Shown one piece after another: positions 9,122-64,000 of a DNA stretch of 64,000 nucleotides; positions within the stretch are counted from its first letter, which is position 1; each line of letters begins with the position of its first letter. This DNA is from a virus: positions 41,679-105,678 of the IMG/VR virus record IMGVR_UViG_3300032093_000041; one strand, 5' to 3'. Below the pieces are notes generated by a model. It saw only the letters and a list, made by a program, of their open reading frames with translations, was not told the DNA's origin and ran no database searches. The translations under genes were made by a program, and so were the position numbers.

Positions 9122-12100
9122 ATGCTTATTGAAAACGAAGACGAGAAGCCTAGGAACAGAAAGCTTCGACGCAACAAAAAAAACTGGGAAAAGCTTAGAG
9201 AAAAACCAATTGTCGCTATCGATACCCTGTCTGGTGGCGGTCTTGTTTCAGGTCAAATATCGGGCAAAGCTCTGGGAGGACGCATAGGTCGTCGTATTGG
9301 TGGAGCCTCTAAGCCAATGGATATGAATCCGACTACAGCAAGAGACGCCGACATGGACGGAATGGTCTTAGAGGGCATACCAACAATTCGCCAAGGAAGA
9401 GGAATGCCAGACCCCACACCGGGAGGCGAAGTCGCCGGCCGAATGGGCAGGGAGCAAAATAAAGAAGAGTTTGTAGGTGTAGACAAGCTTTTGCGCCAAC
9501 ATTTTTCACAGTTTGCAAAGTTTCAAGAATGGACGAAAAACAAAGATTGGAACGCATTCCATAGAAACCATTTTGACTGGTGGATGTTTCCAATCCCTCT
9601 CGGTTCTAATTCATATAGGGATGAGTACAACATTGCCGGGGAACCGCTAGAAGAACTACGGCAAAACAAACGCTACATGGCAACGCTGGCGAGCGCAATG
9701 AGGATGTACACACGTTCAATCGGCTGGGACATGGACAGTCAAGAGTGGATAAATAACGCCGAAATAGAACGTGGGCAAGAGCCAGTTAGAAGCCTTAATC
9801 GTGCTCGCTTACTCAAAATTGCCCAGTCAGCTGAAGCTCATGGTCTAGATAATGAACTTAGCTCGATGAGCCACATGGTCAACGACATGCGTTCGAACGG
9901 CATCCCAACCGGAAATGATGAATACTGGAATTCTATTTCTGGAAGGATGAGCAATCCTGATAGACCAAATTTTCCACTTAACCCAAAACAAGGCGACACT
10001 TTCTCTTCAGATGACCCAGAAGATACAAGAATATGGAAATTTGATGGAAAGTTATGGGTTAGGCAAGACGGAGGCGGAAGACGCTCCGCGACAGTTGGGT
10101 TCCGTAAAGCCGGTGGCAGCGGGGGTAAAAGTATATCTCCATCAGCTTCTTCTATTAGGGCTGGTTCAGAAAGAACTGTAAAATATGGTTCGCCAGCTTT
10201 CGATGAGCTGTGGGAACGCCGCGACAAAGAAAACGAACAGGCGGACGGCACCAACCTAACATTTGACTGGAAAAATGAAGAGTCAAGGCTTTACTACTTA
10301 TCAGTATTTGGCAAATTTCCCAATACTCATCCTAAAAATAGAAAAAAAGTGGGATGGGCAAAATTTGGTGGGGGTAACGAGCCTGGGAATTATTCTGGGG
10401 GAACTCACTCCTGGATTGCTGCAGTAAAGAATCAATTGCGTGAACTTGGAATTTCACTCGTCCCACAAGAACACCCTAAAATGGGGGACCAATATGGAAG
10501 CTGGATTTCTTTCTCCGGCAGCCCTGGTGCGTCTGCTGCAGAAGGAGCATCAGCAAAACAGCTGTTATCTCATCTTGCAGAAACAATTAGCCCTGATACA
10601 TTCTATGAACACTTTGAAGCTTGGATTAGAAATCCATTTGTAACAGCACAAAAAAACGGCAAAGACGTTGGCGTAAGACTTGCTTTCAACAATGATAAAG
10701 AAAAGCTTTTAAATGAATACCGGCGTAGAGTTATAGCGCTACGAGATGCATTGTACTCTCATTTTGGTAACGAGGTTGACGAAGTTGCCGAAACAATGGT
10801 TAAGCCCCTAACAGACTCATCAGGAAAATCCAGCACCAATACTGGGAACGATTGGGTAGACCTAACAGAAAATGCTAGATGGGCTTCCAACTTAATCAAA
10901 CAACAAGTATCAAATATTCTTGAACAAGAAAAACCTCGCAGCGAAGAACGCCTTGCATATCTTTTAGATTCGCGACTGCAATCAAAGCTACCTGATGAAA
11001 TAAGGCAACAAATACGAACATCTCCTAGTTTTATTAGAGGCTTGCTTCAAGAAGAATTCAAAAACAGGGACTGGGGGAGAGGAGATAATTTCTCCCAAAT
11101 AGATTTAATGCCCTCCGTTGATGACGAAACGGTGTCCCTGATTGAAGAATTAGCTGACGAATTTATAGAAAAACTAATAAGCGAAAATGCCGATGTGAGC
11201 GTAGTAAGTGACGCAGATTCTAAAAATTTCATTGATTCATTTGTTCAGGATTCCTCAATGCGGACATCCGCAGCAAAGCCGATGTTGCAGAGCAAACTCA
11301 GCAACAGAATAGCTAGAGGACAAATTTCTGGGAAAATGGGAAATACCCCAGAAAATGACATAGAAGCGAAAGACCTTGAATACGACCCCGACACGCCAGA
11401 GCATTTAGGGAACCATTTCACATCGAAACATGAAGGGTACGACGTTAGGCCTAACCCTGTAGACAACGTCTTGGATGCGCGCAATACCGGCGCACCACTG
11501 GAGTGGCTCGTACCAGGTTCGTATCACCCAGAAATAAAAGAATTAGTCAATGGGCTGACGGACAAGGTATTGGAGCTTGGGTTTGCTAGTTACCTACAAA
11601 CAAATCCAGACTTCTACATGGGCTCTAAAGATACCGCTGGTCGCGATGCAGCATCGGAATTCAGAGGTTGGCTCGGAGGATGGATTGGAGCAACTGTTTC
11701 CAAGATAATGGCCTTGGGTGATTTTGGTGAAGATTTTGAACTAGACGACGGTCATAGGGACTTCATAAGAAATTTCGTAGGAGACATGGCCGACACAATG
11801 ACCCGCTTCTCTGACATACCGCGTGAAGACCCTGACGGTCGTGGCGGCAACACAATGCAAGTGCTTCGTGGCCTTATTTCTCGTGTTCCTGGATTTGGTT
11901 CAGGGGGAAGTATGACAAGCGACCTAAGTCAAGAAGTAAATGACATAGCCAGCGGACTAGCAATGCGGGCCATACACGCAGGGTTAAAAATCAACAACAT
12001 GCAACGTATGGGTATTAGCGATAGACGTAGGGCGAACCAAGACACACTTGACTGGTGGAACTCTGCCATAGGCGCTGGCCTGCTTTCTACATCTCCTAGC

Positions 12101-43806: not shown

Positions 43807-44118
43807 TTAACCACTAAGACGGGTGTTACACAAGAGACAAAATGATGCCCACGGGTATGATTTGCGACTTTCTAGGGGGTGTTGACACTCTCCGGTCTTG
43901 GCGCAGGCGTCATTAACTGCTAGGCGTATGAACTCCGCCATGGACATGCCAGTCTTTTCGGCCGACTCCTGCCAGCGCTTATGGTCAGACTCTGTGACAC
44001 GGACCAATACCTGCTTCTGTGTTGGCTCACCAGGAGAAGTTCCTGTGTTCTTCTTTCGGGTGGGAGTAATAGAGTCTGCCACCTTATCCATTGCTGCTTC
44101 GATATTGTCTTCACTCAT
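43807..44118 (-). CDS. Ribbon-helix-helix-like protein with a Zn motif
   Basis: VLVRV..WQESAEKTGMSMAEFIR; C.H..CLLC. Confidence 0.65.
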   Translation of the reverse strand: MSEDNIEAAMDKVADSITPTRKKNTGTSPGEPTQKQVLVRVTESDHKRWQESAEKTGMSMAEFIRLAVNDACAKTGECQHPLESRKSYPWASFCLLCNTRLSG

Positions 44119-44749
44119 CGGGAAGCCTTTCCTCCACCACCTCGGCATCAACGATGTCATCGTCTACCTGGATGTTCTCTAGTTGTTTAGTTTTGTTAAG
44201 TATTGAATCAACGTAATCCGCGGGCATAACACCCGATTTGCCCATCAACTCCAGCATCTTGCGCGCTTCTGACTCAGGGCTGAACTCTTCTGCTGCCGAC
44301 CTAGGGAGAGCGCCGGCCAACACAGCACGGGCTGGAATTCTCTGCCCAATGTCTACGTTCACATTAACGTTCTGCTGGTCCATACCTAGAAGCTTTGCGC
44401 GCCTATCCATGATTGACAAGACGGACGTGATGGCCTTTAGGTCTGGTTCTATCTGGACTTCTGTTCCATCGTCTTGTGTTACCTTGCGATGCTGCGTCAT
44501 TGGCCAAATTGCTTGCTGAAGAGCATCCAGGCGCTCAAGCTCCATGCGAAGAACTTCCGGGTAGGCCAACAGGGCTTCCTGGTTCAGTTTCTCCAACTGT
44601 CTAGATATAGCGCTCGTAACAGCCTTAGTAGTAATACTGAACCTACGGGCTATTTCCCCATGGGGCACGCCAGCTTGGCGCATCTTGAAGATTCTCAAGT
44701 CGCGCTCGGCTAAGAACTCGCGTGTCAAGCTGTTGGATTTTTCGGTCAT
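44111..44749 (-). CDS. HTH protein, terminase-small-subunit-like
   Basis: MRQAGVPHGEIARRF HTH; ELERLDAL..AI..IMDRRAKLLG. Confidence 0.65.
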   Translation of the reverse strand: MTEKSNSLTREFLAERDLRIFKMRQAGVPHGEIARRFSITTKAVTSAISRQLEKLNQEALLAYPEVLRMELERLDALQQAIWPMTQHRKVTQDDGTEVQIEPDLKAITSVLSIMDRRAKLLGMDQQNVNVNVDIGQRIPARAVLAGALPRSAAEEFSPESEARKMLELMGKSGVMPADYVDSILNKTKQLENIQVDDDIVDAEVVEERLPDE

Positions 44750-44757
44750 TGGATACC

Positions 44758-46545
44758 CTAAGAGTGTTTACTAAATTCTAGTACCACAAAGGGCCAATCT
44801 GTGCCACGAGCCATCTGCTTTGGCCAATCACGCTGGTCACGGGCTCCACGGAAGTGCCCAACGTTGTAGACGTATCCCCCAGGATTGGTTGGGTCTGGTG
44901 TTAGAGCAAGACCAAACTCAGGCCAACGTGACCAGACAGACGAACCGAACGGGCGCAAGTCACGTGAACCCATGGACCCCAAGGGAGCGTGATGTTCAAG
45001 CCACAAGGTAACGCCATAGACGTCACGAATCATGTCCAAATACTTTGCCACCTCAATCGCTAGTGCTTCGCTAGTGCGGGTGCCGCTGTCAACAAAGGAC
45101 TTGTACATCGGCCCCATACAGATGAGCTGAGGCTTAATGGTTTCAATGTAGGACTCCAGCAGAACGCGGTCTTTTGTGCTTGTTAGGTCTAAGCCGTCTG
45201 GCTTCATCAGCATATGTGCGTCTACGTGCTTTGCCCCTGAATGTTTCATGGCCTGCAACATGATGCTACGCGAGGTTCGGCGGATAATGCGCTCAGGGTT
45301 TTCTAGGTCAACAGTTAGCGTTCGGACGGGTGGGATTTTCTGGAAGGTGAATGGGTGTATCCCAGCCGCTGCACAGATTGCGACTTGGCGGGCCAACATT
45401 GTCTTGCCGACGCCTTCGGCCGCGACGACCATAACGCGTTCGCTGCGTTCGAGAATGCCTGGAATAACCCAATCATATGAATCATCTTCTGCCTCCTGAA
45501 GAAACTCTTGCCAGTTAACTAGTCGTCCTGGCTGACCTGTTACGTGCTGTGTGTCTGCGCTATTTAACAACACGACAGAGCGATTAATTTTTTGCTGGAG
45601 AGTCAGCTTATTCTTGTTAAATACATCAATGATTTGCTCAAGAAGACTGTCTTCTGTCGTGTCTTCTGTTGGCTCTTCTAGCTGCGGCATTGTCTCTGCG
45701 CGCTCATAAAAACCAAGTTCAATCAGGTCGTCAATATCTTTCCCAGACACAATATGGTCAGTAATGTCTTTTGCTGTTGGCGACATCCATATGTTGCAAC
45801 CTCGAGCACCAGCAGCCTGAAGCTTTGCCGCTACAGCCAAAGCATGTTGTTTACCCACTTCGTCATTGTCGGCAATGATTTCTACATGCGCTGCAGAGAG
45901 AACATCGGTGTATGACTGCTCCCACTTTCCTGCGCCGCTATCCATGGTTGTCCCACAGATACCCATATCGGCCAATGTGTCAGCGTCTTTCTCGCCCTCC
46001 ACAAGCCACACGGGTTCACCTGCTGCAATTGCCTTAACTACTTCAGGAAGACGATAAAGAACACGACGCACAAGCGGCTCTTTCAGGTTCCAGATGTATT
46101 CCCCTGGATTTGCTGGGTCCGGCTGACGATTAGCAAATGATTTTCCGCCATCATCCAAGCGAAAGCGCACCTTCTCATATAGAAGCGTGCCCTCTTCGTT
46201 GTAATACGGGTATACCTTTTCAATCTTCTTACCTACGTTGCGCTTAGTAGATGCACTACGGGTGTCTGGTTGAAACTTAGGGGCAGGAACCCAGTCGTCG
46301 TCACTCTCTGAGAAAAGCTCGCGTGCCTCTAGGCCGATTGACTTACATATCTCATCAAGCGAACAAGAATTACCACGGTGACAATGCATTAGTGCTGTCC
46401 CCTCGTCGTTCTGCGAAATAGCAAGCGAAGGGTTCTGGTCATCATTGCGACAAGGGCAACGCGCCATCCATTGGTTGCGGCCTGTTTGGCGCACTCCCTC
46501 AAGAAGACTAAGGACTGTGTCTACGGGTTTAGAGATATTGCTCAT
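44758..46545 (-). CDS. Primase-helicase (Zn finger, TOPRIM, RecA-family/AAA_25)
   Basis: ARCPC..SL..HC; LVEGEKDAD..IADND; AAEGVGKT Walker A; DLEN; LEHH. Confidence 0.9.
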   Translation of the reverse strand: MSNISKPVDTVLSLLEGVRQTGRNQWMARCPCRNDDQNPSLAISQNDEGTALMHCHRGNSCSLDEICKSIGLEARELFSESDDDWVPAPKFQPDTRSASTKRNVGKKIEKVYPYYNEEGTLLYEKVRFRLDDGGKSFANRQPDPANPGEYIWNLKEPLVRRVLYRLPEVVKAIAAGEPVWLVEGEKDADTLADMGICGTTMDSGAGKWEQSYTDVLSAAHVEIIADNDEVGKQHALAVAAKLQAAGARGCNIWMSPTAKDITDHIVSGKDIDDLIELGFYERAETMPQLEEPTEDTTEDSLLEQIIDVFNKNKLTLQQKINRSVVLLNSADTQHVTGQPGRLVNWQEFLQEAEDDSYDWVIPGILERSERVMVVAAEGVGKTMLARQVAICAAAGIHPFTFQKIPPVRTLTVDLENPERIIRRTSRSIMLQAMKHSGAKHVDAHMLMKPDGLDLTSTKDRVLLESYIETIKPQLICMGPMYKSFVDSGTRTSEALAIEVAKYLDMIRDVYGVTLWLEHHAPLGSMGSRDLRPFGSSVWSRWPEFGLALTPDPTNPGGYVYNVGHFRGARDQRDWPKQMARGTDWPFVVLEFSKHS

Positions 46546-46849
46546 GAATCGCAATCTTTGTAAATAGTTTGAGTGTGCCGTCAGCTTTTCTTCGTCTGGC
46601 TATTTGTTCTCGTGCATCAATATTTAATCCACCCCAGATGCCATGTTGCTCCTGGGCTGAGATTGCATACTCTAGACACTCTTTGCGCACATGACAACCC
46701 GAACAGATTTCTTTTGCAACAACAGTGTCGCGCGCGCGTGCACCTCTGGCGTGACGCTCGGGAAACCACCAGTCAACCGGATAACCGATACATGCACCGT
46801 CTTGTGGCGGTTGCTCCTCAAATGGAATAACCCAACGAATACCCGACAT
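46529..46849 (-). CDS. whiB: Second WhiB-family regulator
   Basis: GAC..WWFPE..AKEICSGCHVRKECLEYA..GIWGG. Confidence 0.9.
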   Translation of the reverse strand: MSGIRWVIPFEEQPPQDGACIGYPVDWWFPERHARGARARDTVVAKEICSGCHVRKECLEYAISAQEQHGIWGGLNIDAREQIARRRKADGTLKLFTKIAIHEQYL

Positions 46850-46904
46850 AACCCTCCTCGGTTGAACTACGAAGGATAGTTGAGCTTTATGCGAAATGCA
46901 ATAA

Positions 46905-47381
46905 CTAGTCGAATATTTCTGCGATACGACGGAACGCGTACGCAACTTTTTCACGGGCTGATGTTTTGATTCCCAGATAGCGCTCAACAAATTCCTGCGC
47001 GCGTCTATTTGACACAGCCGTGATTTCGTAAACCATGTCTCTGTAGCTATCTGAGTTGATGAACTGCTCCCACAGCAGCGGGTCAAATCCGTCATACTTG
47101 TGGAATGTCATTGACTCCAGACCGTCTTTGTCTGCGATTATCTCTAGACGCCAGTTGGTTTGTTTCTCGATAGACAAAAGCAGGTCTGTCATCGCAGCAG
47201 CACCATCGTTTTCGAAGGCTGCCTTGACAAAGGCATTTATTTGACGCTGCCGGTGCAGAATCCAAGCATCTTCCATCTCTTCCATCTCTTCTTCAGAGAG
47301 AGAGTCTGTGCTTATTTCAATATCGTCGTCGTCGTCTTCCCAGTCGAACATATCGTCATTGAAAAAATCACGGAAAGACAT
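46905..47381 (-). CDS. Acidic hypothetical protein
   Basis: 158-aa ORF in operon. Confidence 0.7.
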   Translation of the reverse strand: MSFRDFFNDDMFDWEDDDDDIEISTDSLSEEEMEEMEDAWILHRQRQINAFVKAAFENDGAAAMTDLLLSIEKQTNWRLEIIADKDGLESMTFHKYDGFDPLLWEQFINSDSYRDMVYEITAVSNRRAQEFVERYLGIKTSAREKVAYAFRRIAEIFD

Positions 47382-54732: not shown

Positions 54733-54953
54733 ATGTAGATTCTACGGCGACAACACAAAATAACAACTCCGGGGCTTCAAACAAGGCTCTTGTTTGGAGC
54801 CGGGACTGCGAAGCAGAAAAAACACCCAAGCAGGTTGCTGAGTTCGGGCAAAACAAAAGGGGCGCACCGAATAACGATGCGCCCCCGTGTTCGGGTATTT
54901 ATCCAACCGACAATAAAGCAAAAACTGTCAAAGCAACCACAACGGCAACCATC

Positions 54954-55151
54954 TCACCCCCCTATCTCTGTTGTTGGGTCAAAATAAGGGTCGGGTACTG
55001 TCGTATCCCACGGGCAGGGATAGTGAAAGTACTCGCACTCAGGTATTTCCGTCTCATCTATGCTTGCGAGTTTGGAACAACCAAAAACAGCAAGAGTAAG
55101 AGTGAGCATTAGTAAACCCCAGCGCACGCACGAGCGTACGAAGTAGTACAT
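54954..55151 (-). CDS. Small membrane protein, paralogue of 58733-58936
   Basis: TM segment + PECEYFHYPC..DPY; SD AAGGA; own promoter. Confidence 0.7.
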   Translation of the reverse strand: MYYFVRSCVRWGLLMLTLTLAVFGCSKLASIDETEIPECEYFHYPCPWDTTVPDPYFDPTTEIGG

Positions 55152-55187
55152 AGCATTTCCTTTCGCTAGGCACTCCACCCACCCTGT

Positions 55188-55216
55188 ACCTTACAAGCAA
55201 CAAGGCACGATGTCAA
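55188..55216 (-). promoter_or_regulatory. sigma70-type promoter
   Basis: TTGACA-17-TAAGGT. Confidence 0.7.
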
Positions 55217-55821
55217 GTCTTTCCGAAAAGAAAGTTGCGAAGCCTTCCGAAGTTCCAAGCCGAGCCAGCAACAAGCCGAAGCCGAAGAACAACTCCGTCG
55301 TCCAGAAGACTGACAGTCCCGTGCAGCTCTTCGAGCTTTACGGGGCTAACGCGGGCGGAAGAAGGGGGTGTGGCAAAGTTTGCCAACATAACACGAAAAA
55401 CTCAAAAGTCAAGTTCGTGAAGTCGCCAAAATAAAGGATTTCGGGTTTTTCAGTTTCTAAAAAAATAAGAAAACCGAAAAACTGCCCGAAAGCCGATGCC
55501 ATCTGAGGTCTGCCGCCCGTGCAACTCCCCGTGCGGCTGGCGCTCGAGAGCCCCGCGACTACCCGCAATAAACTGACGGTGGCGGAAGACGGGCTGAGAT
55601 GTTCCAACTTTGAGCAACGCTAGACATCTAGAAAGGCTCAGGTTGGAAGCAGGGTATTTAGGGACACCATCAAGCCGCAAGTCGCCGAGACGGGCAGAGA
55701 GACGGCGATGCGAGGCGATTACGGGCAGCACAAAGCCGCCCCACGACTAAGCAGGGCGGCAAGTGGATTATCTACTAGACAGCAAGCAGCAAGAAAACAG
55801 CAACCGTCAAAATGACAGCGG

Positions 55822-56106
55822 TCACTCTACAATCTCATCGCTAGCGATACCCAAAGCAGCAAGGGTCGGGTGGTTGCGATGCTGATTACCTTCTGCATCA
55901 ACCCACACAACGACATCACGGCGAGGTGGCTCTGTCCCACACGGATACTTGGCAGCCTTGTGCCAACCTTTACAGGCGCAGCGGTCACATACCGATTCCC
56001 ACGATTCGGGGTCTTGCCACCATAGGTGAGTGTTGTAGTTGGCTAACATTTCATCAACCGTTCCGATAAAAGGTATCGGTTCGTTGATAGTGGTGATTAT
56101 TTGCAT
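55822..56106 (-). CDS. Hypothetical cassette gene (leaderless)
   Basis: ATG 7 nt after the -10 box; CDRCAC..YPCG. Confidence 0.7.
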   Translation of the reverse strand: MQIITTINEPIPFIGTVDEMLANYNTHLWWQDPESWESVCDRCACKGWHKAAKYPCGTEPPRRDVVVWVDAEGNQHRNHPTLAALGIASDEIVE

Positions 56107-56113
56107 ACGGGCG

Positions 56114-56157
56114 AGTGTACTGAACAGCACAAGGAGTGTCAAGTGTTGTTTGTCACA
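56114..56157 (-). promoter_or_regulatory. Promoter with TGTGAC box
   Basis: TGTGACAAACAACAC-TTGACA-17-TACACT. Confidence 0.8.
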
Positions 56158-56280
56158 GGCACGAGTTGGAGTCGCCGAAGTTCACGGTTTGTCTGGCGAA
56201 CCAGACACGAGCATCTGGTAAATCAGCGGGGCTCACGACCTTCGTGATGGCACTTTTACGACGGTGGCGGAAGACGGGGA

Positions 56281-56317
56281 AAAGAAAAACCCGCCCCCTT
56301 TCAGGGACGGGCGGTTC
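56281..56317 (-). terminator. Intrinsic terminator
   Basis: CCGCCC/GGGCGG stem with an A-run to the left. Confidence 0.65.
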
Positions 56318-56370
56318 TTAGTTCACGGCGGAGAACAACAAAAAAAGAGTAAACGCCGTAATGGCGATGC

Positions 56371-56538
56371 TCATTCAGTGGCTTCTTTCACTTCGTAGTT
56401 CATTTCTTGCCACGAAAGACTTTCATCTTCAGTGTTTGCAAGGCTTGTGATGTACGAATCTATTATTTCTTTTGCTTTTTCTTCGTTATCTGCATCAAAC
56501 TCATCTATGTTGAGCGTGATGTTGGCATAAAACTTCAT
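56371..56538 (-). CDS. Small acidic cassette gene
   Basis: MKFYANITLNIDEFDA..; purine-rich SD; own promoter. Confidence 0.65.
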   Translation of the reverse strand: MKFYANITLNIDEFDADNEEKAKEIIDSYITSLANTEDESLSWQEMNYEVKEATE

Positions 56539-56558
56539 TTCCCCCCCTTCTTGCCTAC

Positions 56559-56603
56559 AGGCTACAGGTGTCAAGCGCAAATGTCAAAGTGTCGTTTGTC
56601 ACA
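56559..56603 (-). promoter_or_regulatory. Promoter with TGTGAC box
   Basis: TGTGACAAACGACACT-TTGACA-17-TAGCCT. Confidence 0.8.
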
Positions 56604-57003
56604 GCCGAGCCTCAGGTCAGTCCGAGTTGCGCTGCGCCAGTCCGACTTCCGGGCCGCCGGGCCGTCCAGGGCCAGAAACCACGGAACAGTCCCGTTTCCC
56701 CGCACTGGGTAAACGGGGCTACCGCGGGGAAAACCCATCGCACGTACGACGGGTGAGCGACGGGGGCTTGCGCCAAGCAAAAAACTCCAAAGAACTTGAC
56801 TTTCGCTTCGTTTTTGCCACTTTCCGTGAACTTTTTGACTTTCCGACCACGCAGAGTGAGCGTTTTCCAAAAAACAAAAGAAAACAAAGTTGATAATCCG
56901 ATGTCGTACGTCGTGAGGAACTCAGATGCTGGACATCAACTGGGTTAGCAGCGGGGCTGATGACCCAGTCTCATTTACATTGACGGTGGTGGAAGACGGG
57001 CAC

Positions 57004-57035
57004 AAAAAAACCCGCCACATTTCTGTGACGGGCTT
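57004..57035 (-). terminator. Intrinsic terminator
   Basis: A7 + CCCGCCACA/TGTGACGGG stem. Confidence 0.7.
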
Positions 57036-57086
57036 TCGTTCAGATTGCCAACAATAAAAGAACTGCCAGCGCAACTATCAACGCTG

Positions 57087-57299
57087 TCATTCTTCTTGTT
57101 GTTCTTCTTTCTTTGGACATTCGCCTTGCTTGTGGAAGCAACCTTTTCCATTGAGCCAAATACACTCAACGCCTTCACCAATGATGGTTCCGCACCTACC
57201 ACACTTTGTGTGACTAAATGCTTTTACTATCTTTCCTTGGGATTTAGCAAATCGTTTTGACTTTTGGACTTTGGTTTCTTCCGGATAGAACTCCGGCAT
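57087..57299 (-). CDS. Small Zn-ribbon cassette gene
   Basis: SD TAAGGAGG; KCGRCG..H..C. Confidence 0.7.
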   Translation of the reverse strand: MPEFYPEETKVQKSKRFAKSQGKIVKAFSHTKCGRCGTIIGEGVECIWLNGKGCFHKQGECPKKEEQQEE

Positions 57300-57321
57300 A
57301 AACCCCTCCTTAGGTAATAGC

Positions 57322-57366
57322 AAACTACACCCTGTACGCCACAGTCGCAACGTGTCGTGTGTCACA
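57322..57366 (-). promoter_or_regulatory. Promoter with TGTGAC box
   Basis: TGTGACACACGACACG-TTGCGA-17-TAGTTT. Confidence 0.7.
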
Positions 57367-57841
57367 CCGAGACGAGCACGAGTTTGGCTTGACCGAGCAA
57401 GAGCGATGGACAACCTGAGCAACTCCGTCTGGCGATGCCATCTGGGCAGAAGTCCCGGACGGCCGTGCGGCCGCATCGGGGCTGCCAGGGACATCTGGCC
57501 AGAAAGCCGGAAGTTGGCCCTCTTCGCTTGCTTTTTCTCGAACTAAAAAGTAAAGTCGAGCAAAAATGACCACTCTCCGTGAGTTTTGACAAACTTTGAC
57601 CACGCAGCGTGACTTTTTCAAAAAACAAACGCAGAAAATCCTCGAGCTGAGCGTGCCCGTCGAGCTGAGCTGAGCTTGATGGGGGCGGGGTAGCGGGGCT
57701 CTCGCCCCCATCTCACTTACTTTGACGGTGGCGGAAGACGGCGCACCACGGGCAAGGGTCAAGGTCACAGGCACACGGGCAAAGCAAAGCCCGCCGTGCG
57801 GGGGGCACACGGCGGGCTTGCTCGGTTGTTTTGGTTGTTGG

Positions 57842-58204
57842 TTACTTCCAGCAGGAAGCGGAATAGACGACTTCGCTCAAGTTGTCACAATAGACATCTG
57901 AAACTTGCGACTCCACAACGATTGAACCCTTCAGTTCTCCACGGGTCACAAGGCGCACACGGCGCACTGTGTAGGTATCCCACGGGTCTAGCACGACTTC
58001 CACCGCGCGAGATTCTCCGCAGAGCATCAACACGCCGACAGTCTCCATGCCTGAATCGTAAACCTTCGCCCACTTGCCACCGCACACAGCGAGAAAGTTC
58101 ATCTTGCCCACTTGGGCTAAGACTTCGCCCGTATCGCACGGGCGACCTTCACGGTCTGAGCAGAGTAACGCCATAAGCGATAGGTCTGTTTTGGTTGCTT
58201 TCAT
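57842..58204 (-). CDS. Hypothetical cassette gene
   Basis: LAQVG..AVCGG..DTYTV..DVYCDNL; hairpin at 57789-57819 downstream. Confidence 0.75.
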   Translation of the reverse strand: MKATKTDLSLMALLCSDREGRPCDTGEVLAQVGKMNFLAVCGGKWAKVYDSGMETVGVLMLCGESRAVEVVLDPWDTYTVRRVRLVTRGELKGSIVVESQVSDVYCDNLSEVVYSASCWK

Positions 58205-58225
58205 AATCACCCCCTTACACCTGAC

Positions 58226-58269
58226 AGGGTACAGGCAACACAGCACTAACACAAGTGGCGTTTGTCACA
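58226..58269 (-). promoter_or_regulatory. Promoter with TGTGAC box
   Basis: TGTGACAAACGCCAC-TTGTGT-17-TACCCT. Confidence 0.7.
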
Positions 58270-58475
58270 CGACAGGCGAGGCAGTCCGAGCCAACCCCGA
58301 CAGCCGAGCCGAGAAACTCCCACGGGCGCACGGGCGCAGGCGCACGAGTGCGGGCGGAAGTCCCGGACGGCCGCAGCGGCCCATCGGGGCTCCCAGAGAG
58401 ATTTGACGGTGGTGGAAGAACTCATCGTGATGTGTCCCCGTCTTGACGACCTCACCCTTGCTTGTCTCTCAACGA

Positions 58476-58519
58476 TGTGACAACTGCCACTTGTCATGTG
58501 TGCTTGACACCTGTACCAT
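58476..58519 (+). promoter_or_regulatory. Promoter with TGTGAC box
   Basis: TGTGACAACTGCCAC-TTGTCA-17-TACCAT; ATG 7 nt later. Confidence 0.8.
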
Positions 58520-58526
58520 TCACCCC

Positions 58527-58736
58527 ATGAAAGAGTTCTGTGGAGAAATCATCTACACCAATGCCGATGGCGACAATGTTCAGTCGGACATCTGTAAGCA
58601 CAACACAGATGAGGTGACCGAGGGGTACCGTGCCTTCCTTCATGCCAACCTTGACGAATGGCTGAACAAGGCAAATGGTGAAGGCGCATTTTGGGTCGGC
58701 GACCCTGAATACTTCCGTAGTTGGGAGAAGGAATGA
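58527..58736 (+). CDS. Hypothetical protein (leaderless)
   Basis: ATG at the predicted TSS; coupled to the next gene. Confidence 0.7.
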   Translation: MKEFCGEIIYTNADGDNVQSDICKHNTDEVTEGYRAFLHANLDEWLNKANGEGAFWVGDPEYFRSWEKE

Positions 58737-58936
58737 GCCACCCACCTATCTATTACAAGGTGCGTTCGTTCGTGAGGTTTGTCTTTTGGACAACTCTCAT
58801 CGGCGCAACTCTATTTCTTATCGCATCTATCGGAGATGAGAAACAAGGCGTCCCTGACTGCGAGTATTTTCACTACCCGTGTGAGACCACGACAACTCTG
58901 TACGACCCATACGGGTACAACATCTACCAACCCTGA
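58733..58936 (+). CDS. Small membrane protein, paralogue of 54954-55151
   Basis: TM segment + PDCEYFHYPC..DPY. Confidence 0.7.
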   Translation: MSHPPIYYKVRSFVRFVFWTTLIGATLFLIASIGDEKQGVPDCEYFHYPCETTTTLYDPYGYNIYQP

Positions 58937-58944
58937 AAGACACA

Positions 58945-59334
58945 ATGATTACCTGCGATACCTGTGGTGTAGAGCAACCGAACACACAACAAGACAGCCT
59001 TCCTGACGGGGGCTGGTCTTTGCCTATTGACCACTTCGGCTACTACGGTGGCTTTGACGACAATGTGGGCGTCCTACTTGGTAGCGATGAAAGTCGCTTT
59101 ATCAGTATGTGTCACGACTGCGTTGTCAAACTTCTAGATGCTTTTCCGTTGCTCGGAGAGAAACTTCGTGGTGGCTGTCACCCGAACTTCATTCATCACG
59201 CTGACTTTGACAGTAATGATGACTGTACCCTTGACCCTTCATGCTGTCGCTGGGCTTGGGGTTGGAAAGGCAAAGAGACCTACATCGGAGACGGCAAAGG
59301 TGGCTGGGTGCTCGTATCTAAGGATACAAAGTGA
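58945..59334 (+). CDS. Cys-rich hypothetical protein
   Basis: CDTC..GYYGGFDD..CHDC. Confidence 0.7.
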   Translation: MITCDTCGVEQPNTQQDSLPDGGWSLPIDHFGYYGGFDDNVGVLLGSDESRFISMCHDCVVKLLDAFPLLGEKLRGGCHPNFIHHADFDSNDDCTLDPSCCRWAWGWKGKETYIGDGKGGWVLVSKDTK

Positions 59335-59377
59335 CTGCCATCATCGTTCTCGTTGCGATTGCGTTGCTGTTCGCACT

Positions 59378-59599
59378 CTAAAACAGCGTCTGCTCGCCGT
59401 TTGAGCCTTCTCGCTTACCACCACGCTTAGTCTCTGTTTCCACACAGATGGAATGAGCGTACTTGTGCTGGTTCTTCACACCCTTTATTCCTGTGTTGTT
59501 GTCTGAACGCACCCACGCCAACACCAACTTCATTGTTCCACTTTGCCCTGGCTGGACTTCGTGATTACAGAACTCACACACATAGCGAACGTACGACAT
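59378..59599 (-). CDS. Small Zn-binding hypothetical protein
   Basis: CEFC..HSIC. Confidence 0.55.
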   Translation of the reverse strand: MSYVRYVCEFCNHEVQPGQSGTMKLVLAWVRSDNNTGIKGVKNQHKYAHSICVETETKRGGKREGSNGEQTLF

Positions 59600-59680
59600 C
59601 TCATAAATAATACCGGGCGGGGCTGCTAAGCGCAACGGGTTTGCTTTGACGGTGGTGGAAGAGGGCTGGTTGGGTACACG

Positions 59681-59724
59681 AAAAAAGGGGGGTCGCCCAC
59701 CGTACTTGGCAGGCGACCCCCCTT
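59681..59724 (-). terminator. Intrinsic terminator
   Basis: A6 + GGGGGGTCGCC/GGCGACCCCCC stem. Confidence 0.75.
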
Positions 59725-59740
59725 CCGTAGGGGGTACGGT

Positions 59741-60316
59741 CTAGTTGTTCTTGGCGTTGGTGATTGTCTTACACGCCATCGTGAACGCCTTGAAGATGTC
59801 TGCGACAGTCCCTTCCATCTCGCCTTCCAACATCTCAGGCTCGTCATAGACAGGCAAGCCCTTGTCGTTGTAGCGATAGAACACGGTTGTTCCGATGGCT
59901 TGTCCTTCCCACGGATACAGACCCACGATAAGCCCTTCACGCACATCGCTTGTTGGGTTCGTCTTGTACTCTTCTTCGTACATTCCACGGCTCCAATCTT
60001 CGGGCAGGCTCTCCACCCCTTCGTGTGTTGGCTTTGCGTAGCCTTCTACGACATACGCAAGCCACTTCCATTGAACCGATGAGAACTGTGCCATCATCGT
60101 TTCAGCGAGTGCTGACAGCATCAACGGCAAGGTGTCGGTTGGGTGTCCATCGTTGTAGTCGGGTGCGATGAAGCCTTCGCCTGTCGGTAGTTCACCGAGC
60201 AGTACAGGTGGCGTATCGCACATTCCATTGTTGTCCACGCACATCTCGTACTTGACTTCCATCGCGCGAGCGATTACAGAAGCCAATAGTTCAGATGGTG
60301 TCTGTTCTTCTTCCAT
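59741..60316 (-). CDS. Hypothetical cassette gene
   Basis: 191-aa ORF with own promoter and terminator. Confidence 0.8.
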   Translation of the reverse strand: MEEEQTPSELLASVIARAMEVKYEMCVDNNGMCDTPPVLLGELPTGEGFIAPDYNDGHPTDTLPLMLSALAETMMAQFSSVQWKWLAYVVEGYAKPTHEGVESLPEDWSRGMYEEEYKTNPTSDVREGLIVGLYPWEGQAIGTTVFYRYNDKGLPVYDEPEMLEGEMEGTVADIFKAFTMACKTITNAKNN

Positions 60317-60359
60317 TTGTGTACCCCCCTATGGGTAGTTGGTGTGTATTACAAGGTAG

Positions 60360-60403
60360 AAGATACAGGCGATAACACAGTTTGTCAAGTGTCGTTTGTC
60401 ACA
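60360..60403 (-). promoter_or_regulatory. Promoter with TGTGAC box
   Basis: TGTGACAAACGACAC-TTGACA-17-TATCTT. Confidence 0.85.
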
Positions 60404-60618
60404 GGCGAGACAGGGGTGACAGACAGGTGGCGAGTTGGCAGGTGGCGACGAAACTGAGTGGCGACGGCGCAGATGCGCCCGATAGCCCCGCGCTGCGATG
60501 CGACCGTCCGGGGCTCGCACCTTCCGACGGTGGCGGGAGACGGCGCACGGGCAGTCGTTGGGCAAGCAAAAAGCCCGCCCCCTTTCGGAGACGGGCAGTT
60601 CGCCGTGTTGTTCAGTTG

Positions 60619-60975
60619 TTAGCGGTCTGGATTAGGCATTGCCTTCACCGTAAAAGTTCCGCTTGCATCGTGGTGAGAGAGGTGACAAGTAAGCACCATT
60701 GTTTCGGGGTCAAGCGTGTAGCGCAATGACCATTCCGAACGAACGGTAATACTTTCCAACAACTTCATCGGCGTATCGGCGTGGAAAATACCGTCAAGCC
60801 CACCACTCCACAATGGGAATCCCTCAATGCGCCACCAAGTGTCGCCTTCGTGAAGTTCCTCATTATGGGCAATGAGCGTGTTGGCAACCTCAGCGAACAA
60901 GTCTGTCGCAAAGTCCCACTCCACTTCGTCTGAAGTGTTGCTCACCTCTTCCCACTCAATGACAGAATCAGTCAT
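60619..60975 (-). CDS. Hypothetical cassette gene
   Basis: Acidic; SHHDA.G motif; terminator hairpin at 60568-60596. Confidence 0.75.
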   Translation of the reverse strand: MTDSVIEWEEVSNTSDEVEWDFATDLFAEVANTLIAHNEELHEGDTWWRIEGFPLWSGGLDGIFHADTPMKLLESITVRSEWSLRYTLDPETMVLTCHLSHHDASGTFTVKAMPNPDR

Positions 60976-61004
60976 GATTCCCCCTTTTGTGAGTTGAGAA
61001 TCTA

Positions 61005-61033
61005 AGACTACAAAGTTAGTAGCCACTTGTCAA
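61005..61033 (-). promoter_or_regulatory. sigma70-type promoter
   Basis: TTGACA-17-TAGTCT. Confidence 0.75.
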
Positions 61034-61331
61034 ATAGTTATTGTGTGACATTAGCCACTTGCGAACAATGCGATGAGTGCGATGACTACAACAATAGAGA
61101 CTAATGACATGGGCATACCTTAGTGGCTGTCGGCAAGCAACGCAACCCGATGTCGCCGATGTCGCCGATGGCAACACAGATGGGGCGGAAGTCCCGGACG
61201 GGATTTTTGTCCCGCGGGGCTCCCACAGGACTTTGACGGTGGTGGAAGACCCTTCTCCCAGTCTGAGACACTTTCCCCCAGTTAGTCTCACGAGACAGTC
61301 GCACCAAATGTGTCTCACCGAACACCTGTTC

Positions 61332-61375
61332 TGTGACAAATGACACTTGCTAACTGTGCTTGACACCTGTACCCT
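61332..61375 (+). promoter_or_regulatory. Promoter with TGTGAC box
   Basis: TGTGACAAATGACAC-TTGCTA-17-TACCCT. Confidence 0.75.
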
Positions 61376-61509
61376 TCTATGTGGGCAACCGACCCAACTA
61401 GCCTACGAGTTCGCAAGCGACCTGCCCGTAGGGGGACTAGAAGGGAAGGGGGTATGTCGTAGGGAAGGCACACCCGCCCACTCAACACCTAATAGATAAG
61501 GGGAACGGA

Positions 61510-62103
61510 ATGGGAATGGACGTATTTGGGCAAGACCCAAAGAATGAAAAGGGCGAATACTTCCGCAACAATGTGTGGTGGTGGCGTCCCCTGTGGGAGT
61601 TCTGCGAGTTTGTCGCACCTGAACTTACGAGCATGGTTGAGAACGGATACTCCAATGACGGAGACGGGCTTGACGGAGAAGATGCGAAGGAACTTGCCAA
61701 AGTTCTACGCAAGAGCCTGCGTGACGGAACGCTGGACAACTACGAGCAGACACGCAACGAGTGGCTTGCGTCTTTGCCTATTCGCCCCTGTGTTCATTGT
61801 CAGGCGACTGGTAAGCGCACTTGGTACACCAACCCCGACAACAATGGCGACTACACGCCTTCTGTGGAATACAGCATTGCGGAAGCCTTTGCCAACGAGA
61901 TAGCCACCGAAGGTAATGGTTGTTTGCCGACCTACACACCTGTTGAGAAGCCCGAAGGCTGGCTGGAAGAAACCAAAGAATGTAACGCCTGTGGGGGAAC
62001 TGGCGGTCAGCAACACTTTGCGAAGAACTATCCGTTTGACAAGAAGAATGTCCGTGAGTTCGCTACTTTCTTAGCAAACTGCGGTGGCTTTCAGATTTGC
62101 TAA
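61510..62103 (+). CDS. Conserved phage protein with a DnaJ-type CxxCxGxG zinc finger
   Basis: MGMDV..YFRNNVWWWRPLW..CVHCQATG..CNACGGTG..CGGFQIC. Confidence 0.8.
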   Translation: MGMDVFGQDPKNEKGEYFRNNVWWWRPLWEFCEFVAPELTSMVENGYSNDGDGLDGEDAKELAKVLRKSLRDGTLDNYEQTRNEWLASLPIRPCVHCQATGKRTWYTNPDNNGDYTPSVEYSIAEAFANEIATEGNGCLPTYTPVEKPEGWLEETKECNACGGTGGQQHFAKNYPFDKKNVREFATFLANCGGFQIC

Positions 62104-62321
62104 TGAAACGCATTGACCAACTCGCAAACGAATGGGTGAAGGGCGCACTTGCTGGAAAGCGGGTGCGCCTTATCCGTTGCTCAGACCCATACACGAAACT
62201 ACAAAGTGGTGACGAAGGCGTTGTGGACTACATTGACGACATGGGTACTGTTCATGTCAAGTGGGACAACGGCTCATCACTCGGTCTAATACAAGGAGAA
62301 GATACATGGACATACGAGTAG
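62103..62321 (+). CDS. DUF4314-family protein
   Basis: RVRL...DPY..G.EG.V..IDDMGTVHVKWDNGSSLGLI.GED. Confidence 0.8.
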   Translation: MKRIDQLANEWVKGALAGKRVRLIRCSDPYTKLQSGDEGVVDYIDDMGTVHVKWDNGSSLGLIQGEDTWTYE

Positions 62322-62587
62322 ACCTCGCCAGTTGGCGATACTGGACAGATGAAGAAATAGTGGAAACGCTTTACGAGCATTACTACACGCTTGCCTCAAC
62401 GGGGGAACACGCTGTCATGGCTGTTCTACACGACATCACCAAGCACCGTTTCTTCCACTATCACTTGGTAGATGACGAGCGCATGGGTCTTATCCTTGTC
62501 AAGTTCGCCCGTGAACTGGAAGATAAAGGGCAGATGTCTGTCCCCGCTATGGACTTCTACCGTTCTCAACAGACCGACAAGGGATAG
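62306..62587 (+). CDS. Hypothetical protein
   Basis: SD AAGGAG; followed by a terminator. Confidence 0.65.
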   Translation: MDIRVDLASWRYWTDEEIVETLYEHYYTLASTGEHAVMAVLHDITKHRFFHYHLVDDERMGLILVKFARELEDKGQMSVPAMDFYRSQQTDKG

Positions 62588-62610
62588 TCTTTCCTACCCC
62601 TGTCACGCTC

Positions 62611-62652
62611 AACCCCCTGTTTCGTCTCACGCTGGCGAAGCAGGGGGTTTTG
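62611..62652 (+). terminator. Intrinsic terminator
   Basis: AACCCCCTG/CAGGGGGTT stem + TTTGCTTT. Confidence 0.75.
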
Positions 62653-62848
62653 CTTTGTCTACCATCACGGCCATCAGCGCAGCGGCCATCAGAACTATCT
62701 GGCCTAAATAAAACCCGCCGGGGCTACCGACCCCCGTCTTCACTACTTTGACGGTGGTGGAAGACCCTTCGTGGGGAAGTTCGGGGACAGCAGAAAGCCC
62801 CCACCTGCCGAGGCAAGTGAGGGCTAACTGTTGGAAGTGGGTTGTGGT

Positions 62849-63304
62849 TTAGTTGTTCTTGGCGAGAAGTGCGTTGAGAGCAGAGAGCAAGGCGTTAGCG
62901 AGTGAGCCTGTTCCGTTGCCTTCGTCTGTCACGAGGTCGTCAGGGTCAGTCTCAAAGGCGAGAGCCGACCCCATTTTTCCACCACGCTCAACGCACGAGC
63001 AAAGGCGTACACGCTTGCGCTCAGGGTGTGCGCTTGGTGCGCCTTCTACTTCTCCGTTGTCACCGAGTGGCGCAGCCCAACCTGTTGTGATGATGCCAAT
63101 GCCTTGGTCGTCTTCTTTGAGCGACTGAATGTGTGGAAGGCTCTCCAACGCTTCGTAAATGTCTTCTGCTGTTGCGAGAAGACGGAAACCGTCAGCGCAG
63201 TATGCGAACAGTATCGCCTGTTCCATAGTGAAGCCTTCGCCCCCTTCCATAGTGAGTGTGCGCTGGGCAAGTTCTGCCATACGCACAGGTGATGATGTGG
63301 TCAT
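62849..63304 (-). CDS. Hypothetical cassette gene
   Basis: TTGWAAP..PSAHPERKRVRL; hairpin at 62794-62825 downstream. Confidence 0.75.
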   Translation of the reverse strand: MTTSSPVRMAELAQRTLTMEGGEGFTMEQAILFAYCADGFRLLATAEDIYEALESLPHIQSLKEDDQGIGIITTGWAAPLGDNGEVEGAPSAHPERKRVRLCSCVERGGKMGSALAFETDPDDLVTDEGNGTGSLANALLSALNALLAKNN

Positions 63305-63338
63305 CTCTGTCCCCTTTCGTGGGCTAGTAGGTGATTAC

Positions 63339-63383
63339 AAGTTACAGAGTGTAAGGCACAATGTCAATGTGTCGTTTGTCACA
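63339..63383 (-). promoter_or_regulatory. Promoter with TGTGAC box
   Basis: TGTGACAAACGACACA-TTGACA-17-TAACTT. Confidence 0.85.
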
Positions 63384-63730
63384 GGGATTAGTCGGACACA
63401 TCACATAGGACACATCACAGTCGGACTAACCCCAAACTTTGAGCAAGTCCAAACTTCGGCTGAACCAGATGCGACTTCTGGGGCGACATCTGGGGTGACA
63501 GCCCCGCGAGCCGTCTTCGCCCAACGGGGCTCACAAGGCTGACGGTGGTGGAAGAAGCCCCCTGCGCCCGTGCGTGTGTGCGCCTGCCCGTGCGTGTGCG
63601 TACCTGTGCGCCTGCCCGACCCTGTGACAACAGACACAGAAGAAAGATGTTGTGTGAGTGTTGTGCCTGTGCCTTACACCCTGTATCTTTCACCCTGTAC
63701 CAAACAGCCCGATGGCAAGGTCGGTAGGCG

Positions 63731-63785
63731 TGTGACAAACGACACACAGAAACCTATTGACAACTACCATTGACACCTGTAAGGT
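63731..63785 (+). promoter_or_regulatory. Promoter with the TGTGAC box one helical turn further upstream
   Basis: TGTGACAAACGACAC-11 nt-TTGACA-17-TAAGGT. Confidence 0.75.
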
Positions 63786-63828
63786 ACACATTGTCACTTT
63801 GACACCTACCAAGAAAGAAGGAAATGCC

Positions 63829-64000
63829 GTGACACACTCAGTAGAGCAAGCAACACGCCTGTACCTGTTGGCAAAAGAAGCCAGCGCACAGGCAGAAGCA
63901 CAAAAGAAGGAAGCAGAGCAGGCGTTGCGTGAAGCACTCGCCATCGCAGGCATCAACACAAGCGTTGTGGACGGCATCAAAGTCGCCATCGTGGACGGAC
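63829..64000 (+). CDS. Hypothetical protein, truncated by the window end
   Basis: GTG after SD AAGGA; MTHSVEQATRLYLLAKEA... Confidence 0.6.
   Translation, partial: MTHSVEQATRLYLLAKEASAQAEAQKKEAEQALREALAIAGINTSVVDGIKVAIVDG

Follow-up and report, generated by a model that had tools for sequence, protein, structure and literature searches.

The 15-nucleotide (nt) word GACGGTGGYGGRAGA is a real, conserved and polar boundary word that separates small-gene units at the right-hand end of a 64,000-nt stretch of DNA (hereafter the window) taken from the virus record IMGVR_UViG_3300032093_000041. This record is a linear IMG/VR virus contig of 105,678 bp, estimated to be 71% complete, of which the window represents the right-hand 64 kb. 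From its context here and in related phages, we give about an even chance to the word being the docking site of a phage protein with two domains, helicase-associated (HA) and helix-turn-helix (HTH), with a role in promoter control in the relatives and a boundary role in this phage. In addition, the comparison with close relatives shows whole units exchanged at the word, at two joints.

A pattern scan recovered all ten + strand copies described by the initial annotation, which had been made from the letters of the window alone. The copies, numbered r1 to r10 from left to right, lie within 55575-63541 (Table 1) and the scan gave the same spacings as those annotated, of 685, 722, 742, 681, 1243, 878, 709, 1515 and 791 bp. 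In shuffled versions of the window sequence the mean number of matches was 0.26, and 12 matches were reached in none of 100 shuffles. No copy had been noticed in the first 55 kb, and no further exact copy was found either in the rest of the window or in the 41.7 kb of contig that lie outside it, the only related sequence being a copy with one mismatch at 10067, within a giant open reading frame (ORF). The word is thus not uniformly distributed, being restricted to the last 9 kb of the contig, and its bare 8-mer GACGGTGG is not spread either, with only three occurrences outside the array in 96 kb, all of them on the - strand. As the array reaches the contig end, it is truncated. The companion motif CGGGGCT, annotated within about 40 bp of each copy, was located 9-26 nt upstream of copies 2-10 and, in inverse form, 19 nt upstream of copy 1; it has 13 + strand copies at 54770-63525 and none in the first 54 kb of the window.

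The unit layout that had been proposed, namely word, terminator, - strand gene, promoter and GC-rich spacer, held in seven intervals when the sequence was read and scanned for terminators and promoters, and the two long intervals contained the announced three-gene operons on the + strand, that between r5 and r6 together with a 74-amino-acid (aa) gene on the - strand. Seven of the nine intervals carry - strand genes only, yet every copy of the word is on the + strand. The cassettes have terminators and promoters of the form TTGACA-N17-TAnnnT. A second repeat family, TGTGACAAACGACACTTG, is present in nine copies exclusively within the array, adjoining the -35 hexamer, and its strand tracks that of the gene. 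Therefore, the units hold a gene-oriented promoter box and, separately, a word with gene-independent polarity. The TGTGACAAACGACACTTG family (56140-63748) has the appearance of an early-promoter box proper to this lineage, or of a site for another factor. A Pfam scan of ten cassette proteins produced no match.

In the window, the copies of the word are flanked by a hairpin of variable stem with the loop GCGGGGC and by the terminator of a - strand cassette. Around the invariant GCGGGGC, no fewer than ten distinct stem sequences were counted, all perfectly paired over 10-14 bp and covarying, and the loop is usually 24-25 nt from the word. This upstream hairpin is an addition of the window lineage, with a mean folding energy of -21 kcal/mol vs. 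-9.8 in the other class, although several copies lack it; many relatives carry no hairpin at all next to the word, which in them is part of conserved syntenic operons. Regarding the sequences around these elements, each GC-rich spacer between promoter and hairpin carries its own short tandem repeat, with units of 5-20 nt that differ between spacers, and an A/T-rich module of about 90 nt (TTTGAC...CCACGCAG.GTGA...TTTTYCAAAAAACAAA) recurs upstream of r1, r3 and r4, in two long gene-free spacers. By eye, putative tiny ORFs of about 19-20 codons were also seen beside boundary elements at 61054-61113 (-) and 62645-62707 (-), the first of them hydrophobic.

This contig and the complete relative G001 (137.8 kb) are collinear genome-wide at 60-95% protein identity, but the cassettes follow the order A D E F G H I in the former and A D G E I H F in the latter, with their orientation kept, and two fragments show the orders C D E F G (L104) and C D G (L110). 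Synteny is thus not fixed between these relatives, and two of the breakpoints fall exactly at the word. The copy r6 is chimeric at the word, its left flank matching the left of the G001 copy at 96958 and its right flank the right of the copy at 99150. In the case of r7, the F unit ends exactly at its 3' edge in both G001 and the fragment L153, and the G unit begins at r7, or 23 nt past it, in four relatives. The position of these joints at the 3' edges of the word implies that one unit spans from the 3' edge of one copy to that of the next. Nevertheless, homology blocks ended within 30 nt of the word in only 6 of 52 cases vs. 4.3 expected, a difference that is not significant; most block ends simply track gene borders, and exact joints were detected only at r6 and r7. 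As a general enrichment of block ends was not significant, the exchange of whole units rests on these two joints and on the cassette order. Thus, the exchangeable cassettes of the initial annotation stand as regards self-contained units and their exchange at the repeat.

Beyond the close relatives, an exact-match scan of viral contigs found the word in at least 116 viral stretches, many of them with several copies on the same strand. In three complete relatives the arrays have 16, 8 and 9 copies with up to one mismatch, always on a single strand (Table 1); in G002, allowing two mismatches adds a ninth copy and extends the span to 25.7 kb. The "terminal repeats" of these complete genomes are end overlaps of only 121-127 bp, so that the three are circular assemblies from which the physical termini are not obtained. 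A logo built with 162 non-identical copies revealed Y at -1, an A/T-rich and G-poor stretch from -8 to -2 and any base except T at +15. The extended conserved word is thus approximately seven W-rich positions followed by Y GACGGTGGYGGAWGA V, asymmetric and of about 18-24 bp. A search of cellular genomes with the 17-mer returned no arrays, only scattered single matches whose number was close to chance expectation, and a literature search for the word matched only unrelated primers. A different polar word, ACTAGATAAGT, was observed in the loci L222 and L224, with about 25 copies on one strand vs. 3 on the other within 14-16 kb, some in tandem and some intragenic; it was discarded as part of the system of the window, from which it is absent.

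The word runs in the direction of the genes in most relatives, 0-145 nt (in some cases more than 145) upstream of their starts, and if the T's before it are included it gives a -35-like TTGACG. Among the relatives without CGGGGCT, TA starts 5-8 nt past the word in 55 of 103 copies, and TAnnnT is present at offset 5-7 in 24 of 103, compared to about 5% by chance. A layout of TTGACG, about 17 nt and TAnnnT is apparent in about half of the relatives' copies, and in several of them an ATG or GTG lies 6-7 nt beyond the -10, which is a leaderless geometry. In the right-hand part of G001 the copies precede genes matching the replication-initiator and helicase-loader PHROG families. By contrast, in the window lineage (this contig, G001 and a dozen fragments) such a -10 was found in 1 of 54 copies, none of them among the ten of the window, and the sequence downstream of the word is G+C-rich, in most units leading into the inverted terminator of the - strand gene.

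To find genes shared by the arrays, all ORFs from 45 array loci were clustered into families. The most widely shared were a protein with HA and Sigma70_r4 domains and the 510-aa protein of a + strand module, each present in 25 of the 45 loci. The former, of about 130 aa with an N-terminal HA domain (PF03457) and a C-terminal Sigma70_r4 HTH, is the candidate reader of the word. Its helix SRQRVHQI is invariant in 19 aligned members. In the array loci its gene is always on the strand opposite to the word, and in 14 of 22 loci the end of a word copy is found no more than about 25 nt from its stop codon. Relatives of this protein are encoded in about 327 viral contigs, and 80 further loci were fetched through the protein and not through the word. 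In these, 185 copies of the word were opposite to the gene and none on the same strand, whereas the 10-nt core was found 287 times opposite vs. 20 on the same strand, and 53 of the 80 loci carried it at least twice. Towards its 3' end the word differs by lineage, reading GAAGA, GATGA, TATGA, GAAAGC or TATAGC. The AlphaFold model of the protein has two confident domains, of which the C-terminal one superposes on domain 4 of sigma-A (4g8x_A: 50 residues, root-mean-square deviation 2.3). As a separate observation, an AAA_5 (MoxR-like) ATPase and the protein of about 510 aa are conserved inside the array in more than 20 loci (L125:12905-15231, equivalent to G001 100905-103231).

On these grounds, an asymmetric word of about 18-24 bp, formed by an A/T-rich stretch, Y and GACGGTGGYGGAWGA, has the 15-mer as its invariant core, and a large family of uncultured, probably actinobacterial phages of 135-160 kb keeps 8-16 one-strand copies of it across a block of early and replication-initiation genes. 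We infer that the phage-encoded protein, with its HA domain and its HTH similar to sigma-70 region 4, docks on this word, and that the HTH (helix SRQRVHQI) pairs with its -35-like TTGACG end. In the relatives, about half of the copies coincide with the -35 and spacer position of a host-type promoter, often leaderless, and the protein may control initiation there, either activating or repressing it. In the window lineage the copies have lost any -10, and the bound word would serve as a boundary or insulator site between self-contained early units. Every unit is flanked by identical direct repeats, and their recombination carries units whole from 3' edge to 3' edge, which also accounts for the uniform polarity of the word whatever the gene direction.

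Several data weigh against this interpretation, besides the distribution of homology-block ends described above. In the window the word is neither part of a promoter nor placed between promoter and gene, and its orientation is independent of local transcription, unlike that of stoperators. The gene for the HA/HTH protein is not on this contig, where profile matches detected only weaker region-4-like sequences; the contig stops before the position at which G001 carries the gene, and the point of G001 that matches the last, truncated gene of the window opens a conserved + strand module with the AAA_5 ATPase, the 510-aa protein, the HA/HTH gene and replication-initiation genes. Moreover, related phages would be expected to share both gene and word anyway, and a Foldseek search with the whole model of the protein gave a best E of 0.047, which is not significant.

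Few non-coding features of this large group of big uncultured phages are conserved as strongly as the word. If the HA/HTH protein reads it, both would constitute a new regulator-site pair controlling or insulating early genes, and the arrays would provide, outside the T4-like phages, a second case in which cassettes are exchanged at regulatory repeats. Its genome-fixed polarity also raises the question of direction-dependent protein-DNA barriers in phage development.

The host of this phage is likely to be an actinobacterium, as genes of the window specify a capsid protein of HK97 type (48% identity to those of Gordonia and Brevibacterium phages), a WhiB-like factor, an Rpf-like transglycosylase and ten tRNAs. 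The word was not found in the nearest cultured relatives of the capsid (Gordonia and Brevibacterium phages), and a megablast of the array against cultured phages gave no match.

The closest precedent for the cassettes is that of the promoter-early stem-loops (PeSLs), mobile regulatory cassettes of T4-type phages in which whole units are lost, gained or rearranged through recombination between intergenic repeats, and mini-circles arise by exchange between adjacent ones (Arbiol et al., 2010, PMC2839356; Comeau et al., 2014, PMC4122927). As with PeSLs, a hyperplastic block of small ORFan early genes varies in cassette content between otherwise collinear genomes, an intergenic module combines a sigma-70-like promoter (here with nine gene-following boxes) and a stem-loop terminator, and the differences between relatives at r6 and r7 are bounded by repeats, although block ends overall are not enriched (6 of 52 vs. 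4.3). In contrast, the exact joints are here at a separate 15-mer and not at the promoter or terminator of the unit, this 15-mer keeps its genome-wide polarity regardless of gene inversion, its conservation extends well past the close relatives, and the phages are of HK97-capsid, actinophage type and not T4-like.

Stoperators, bound by the repressor of a temperate phage, are genome-wide, mostly intergenic sites whose orientation follows transcription; some overlap the -35 of an early promoter and others are "orphans" at gene boundaries. That of phage L5, recognised by gp71, is GGTGGMTGTCAAG, and its reverse complement begins with TTGACA. The word resembles them in being short, asymmetric, multi-copy and mostly intergenic, with a presumed phage-encoded binder of monomer type and an actinobacterial host. 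Overlap with promoters, judged from a TA at offset 5-8, would be frequent in the relatives (55 of 103 copies) and rare in the window type (1 of 54). It differs from them in its confinement to one block of 10-18 kb and not the whole genome, in an orientation that ignores transcription in the window (the relatives with co-oriented genes do match stoperators in this respect), in the fact that no integrase or sign of lysogeny was found here, and in its candidate binder, an HA and sigma-4-like protein and not a gp71 homologue. The stoperators/operators of Cluster A mycobacteriophages are named as a class by Pope et al. (2011, PMC3203893), who describe the SAS and extended SAS of Cluster K as an asymmetric 13-bp word with 11-19 copies in one orientation, restricted to the non-structural half of the genome, located 3-7 nt from start codons, containing the ribosome-binding site and preceded in about half of the cases by an inverted repeat with a variable spacer. 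The word shares with SAS the asymmetry, the single orientation, the multiple copies and an inverted repeat upstream of some of them, but its distance to starts in the relatives goes from 0 to over 145 nt, and in the window it is placed beside the 3' ends of genes. Given this variable distance to start codons, a role as ribosome-binding site or SAS was rejected. What distinguishes the word from PeSLs, stoperators and SAS alike is a polarity set with respect to the genome instead of transcription.

Among the alternatives, it is unlikely, though less so than for most of those that follow, that the word is a phage-specific rightward promoter also in the window, from which transcription would be started either by the host RNA polymerase, aided by a phage factor, or by a phage polymerase that escaped recognition. 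It would switch on + strand genes and produce antisense RNA against the - strand early cassettes in an early-to-middle switch. The TTGACG end, the co-oriented downstream genes and the TA or TAnnnT at promoter spacing in the relatives would fit this role, as would the copies of G001 ahead of genes similar to those for replication initiators and helicase loaders, and the WhiB-like factor encoded in the window. However, the ten copies of the window lack a -10-like hexamer, and their G+C-rich downstream sequence runs straight into an inverted terminator. A T7-like RNA polymerase (PF00940) was not found in this contig and the three complete relatives, in a search that was uninformative in that the control genomes could not register this family, and no sigma region 2 was detected in the same four genomes. 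The giant head-module proteins were considered as a hidden polymerase and discarded, as comparison of these virion proteins with PHROGs and PDB sequences revealed only DnaJ and Nudix modules.

A similarly low probability is given to the word, here with its hairpin, being an undescribed genome-polar signal, either a crossover site for an unrecognised recombinase or a strand-specific processing or entry signal. If so, these actinophages would actively exchange their early cassettes or handle them unidirectionally, beyond shuffling by chance homology. Each of these two possibilities was also considered separately.

Conserved words of 15-20 nt on one strand are the nick sites of T5 and of phiKMV-type phages. 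A function of the present word as a polar one-strand signal for DNA processing, such as a nick, Chi-like recombination or protection, DNA entry, packaging or fork arrest, could account for its strict polarity whatever the gene direction and for its clustering beside the replication-initiation genes of the relatives, and is judged slightly less probable than the previous alternatives. Against it are the fixed geometry of the word with respect to -10 elements and start codons in the relatives, the restriction of the 8-mer to so few sites in the phage genome, a GC skew with no visible link between the array and a replication origin, and the circular assemblies of the relatives, without physical ends. 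The Chi-like logic of the initial annotation is not supported: Chi is a short host-specific word enriched in the chromosome of the host and dispersed through the phage genome, whereas this word, of 15-24 nt, is confined to one block, conserved in many phages and matched in cellular genomes only singly and as often as chance predicts, the host itself not being identified.

Rather improbable is also an attC-like site, made of hairpin plus word, at which an unrecognised recombinase would excise and insert cassettes, close to the integron-like logic first proposed. As in integrons, sites of the same polarity bound cassettes whatever the gene direction, exchange takes place at the site (r6 and r7), a hairpin is associated, variable in sequence and conserved in pairing, and the cassette order differs between close relatives with orientation kept. 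But the absence of an integrase noted for the window extends to the whole contig: tyrosine recombinases (PF00589) were not found in this contig or in the three complete relatives, under conditions in which control genomes did register, and serine recombinases (PF00239) were not found in these four genomes either. Furthermore, the hairpin conserves its loop and not paired attC core sites, the many relatives with the word and no hairpin keep it in conserved syntenic operons, and integron cassettes are mostly promoterless and read from a common promoter, while here each unit has its own promoter box. The joints are explained by short-homology recombination at 15-19 identical bases, as for PeSLs (PMC2839356). 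The lack of recombinases, together with that of cellular arrays, argues against both the integron-like and the Chi-like readings.

The least probable alternative is a nut-like RNA element on + strand transcripts, in which the hairpin and a linear box would be used by a protein that modifies transcription or RNA stability: to the covarying stems, the invariant loop at its usual distance from the word and three related copies with T opposite G, a G-U pair on the + strand only, are opposed an Rfam scan of the window that detected only ten tRNAs and no family on the boundary elements, the lack of hairpin in most relatives, the position of most window copies after - strand units with no evident + strand promoter seen upstream, and a weak strand preference, as the + strand folds slightly better in 35 copies and the - strand in 19 (n = 54), which is not decisive.

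Table 1. Location of the boundary elements, promoter boxes, terminators and genes of the array in the window, and of the arrays in three complete relatives (coordinates of each genome)
Feature	Position	Strand	Remarks
r1	55549..55589	+	inverted AGCCCCG 55549-55555; 15-mer 55575-55589
r2	56227..56274	+	CGGGGCT 56227-56233, short hairpin; 15-mer 56260-56274
r3	56939..56996	+	9-bp stem around GCGGGGC loop; 15-mer 56982-56996
r4	57678..57738	+	10-13-bp stem around GCGGGGC loop; 15-mer 57724-57738
r5	58357..58419	+	AGTCCCG...CGGGGCT stem with inner hairpin; 15-mer 58405-58419
r6	59618..59662	+	CGGGGCT; 15-mer 59648-59662; recombination joint relative to G001
r7	60484..60540	+	AGCCCCG...CGGGGCT stem; 15-mer 60526-60540 (GGGAGA variant); homology blocks end/start at edges
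r8	61182..61249	+	AGTCCCG...CGGGGCT stem; 15-mer 61235-61249
r9	62719..62764	+	CGGGG/CCCCG hairpin; 15-mer 62750-62764
r10	63500..63555	+	AGCCCCG...CGGGGCT; 15-mer 63541-63555
Hairpin copy without 15-mer	57444..57497	+	80% identical to 58352-58405 (repeat family D6)
Cassette A promoter box TGTGACAAACGACACTTG	56140..56157	-	abuts -35
Cassette B promoter box	56586..56603	-	
Cassette C promoter box	57349..57366	-	3 mismatches
Cassette D promoter box	58252..58269	-	
Operon E promoter box	58476..58493	+	TTGTCA-N17-TACCAT, ATG 7 nt on; looks leaderless
Cassette F promoter box	60386..60403	-	exact match
Operon H promoter box	61332..61349	+	
Cassette I promoter box	63366..63383	-	
Promoter box of gene running off contig end	63731..63748	+	
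Cassette A terminator	55735..55760	-	
Cassette B terminator	56289..56312	-	15 nt past r2
Cassette C terminator region	56997..57038	-	directly past r3 (repeat family D4)
Cassette D terminator-like hairpin	57790..57802	-	
Cassette G terminator	60573..60596	-	
Operon H terminator	62611..62649	+	
Cassette I terminator-like hairpin	62797..62814	-	
Cassette A gene	55822..56106	-	94 aa, no Pfam match
Cassette B gene	56371..56538	-	about 55 aa
Cassette C gene	57087..57299	-	70 aa, no Pfam match
Cassette D gene	57842..58204	-	120 aa, no Pfam match
Operon E	58527..59334	+	genes of 69, 67 and 129 aa; two scanned, no Pfam match
74-aa Cys-rich gene	59378..59599	-	TATTAT-N7-ATG start beside CGGGGCT of r6
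Cassette F gene	59741..60316	-	191 aa, no Pfam match
Cassette G gene	60619..60975	-	118 aa, no Pfam match
Operon H	61510..62587	+	genes of 197, about 72 and 93 aa; scanned regions without Pfam match
Cassette I gene	62849..63304	-	151 aa, no Pfam match
Gene start, cut by contig end	63829..64000	+	
Spacer tandem repeats	57662-57676, 58321-58356, 60401-60422, 61147-61170, 63471-63500, 63566-63606		
A/T-rich module of about 90 nt	55380-55480, 56790-56890, 57540-57640		
Array in G001 (137.8 kb, complete)	91.4-109 kb	all +	16 copies (<=1 mismatch)
Array in G002 (158 kb, complete)	10.2-22.2 kb	all -	8 copies (<=1 mismatch)
Array in G003 (148 kb, complete)	131.8-147.7 kb	all +	9 copies (<=1 mismatch)

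Leaderless mRNAs are common in actinobacteria, and two starts in the array suggest such transcripts, TACCAT-N7-ATG in operon E (58514-58529) and TATTAT-N7-ATG in the 74-aa gene (59599-59617), whose promoter has AGCCCCG inside its spacer.

Outside the array, the window contains giant head-module ORFs of 2450, 1267 and 3927 aa within 1381-24932; the 2450-aa one had no match in PHROGs or PDB sequences, and that of 3927 aa holds the Nudix and J-domain modules. A 212-aa protein encoded at 44111-44749 (-), adjoining an AAA_25 helicase gene and conserved in the complete relatives, has an N-terminal HTH of sigma-4/LuxR type; it was rejected as a phage sigma factor in view of the N-terminal position of this region-4-like HTH. 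The WhiB-like protein, of 188 aa and encoded at 46529-47095 (-), has a 95-aa N-terminal extension and is conserved in all three complete relatives.

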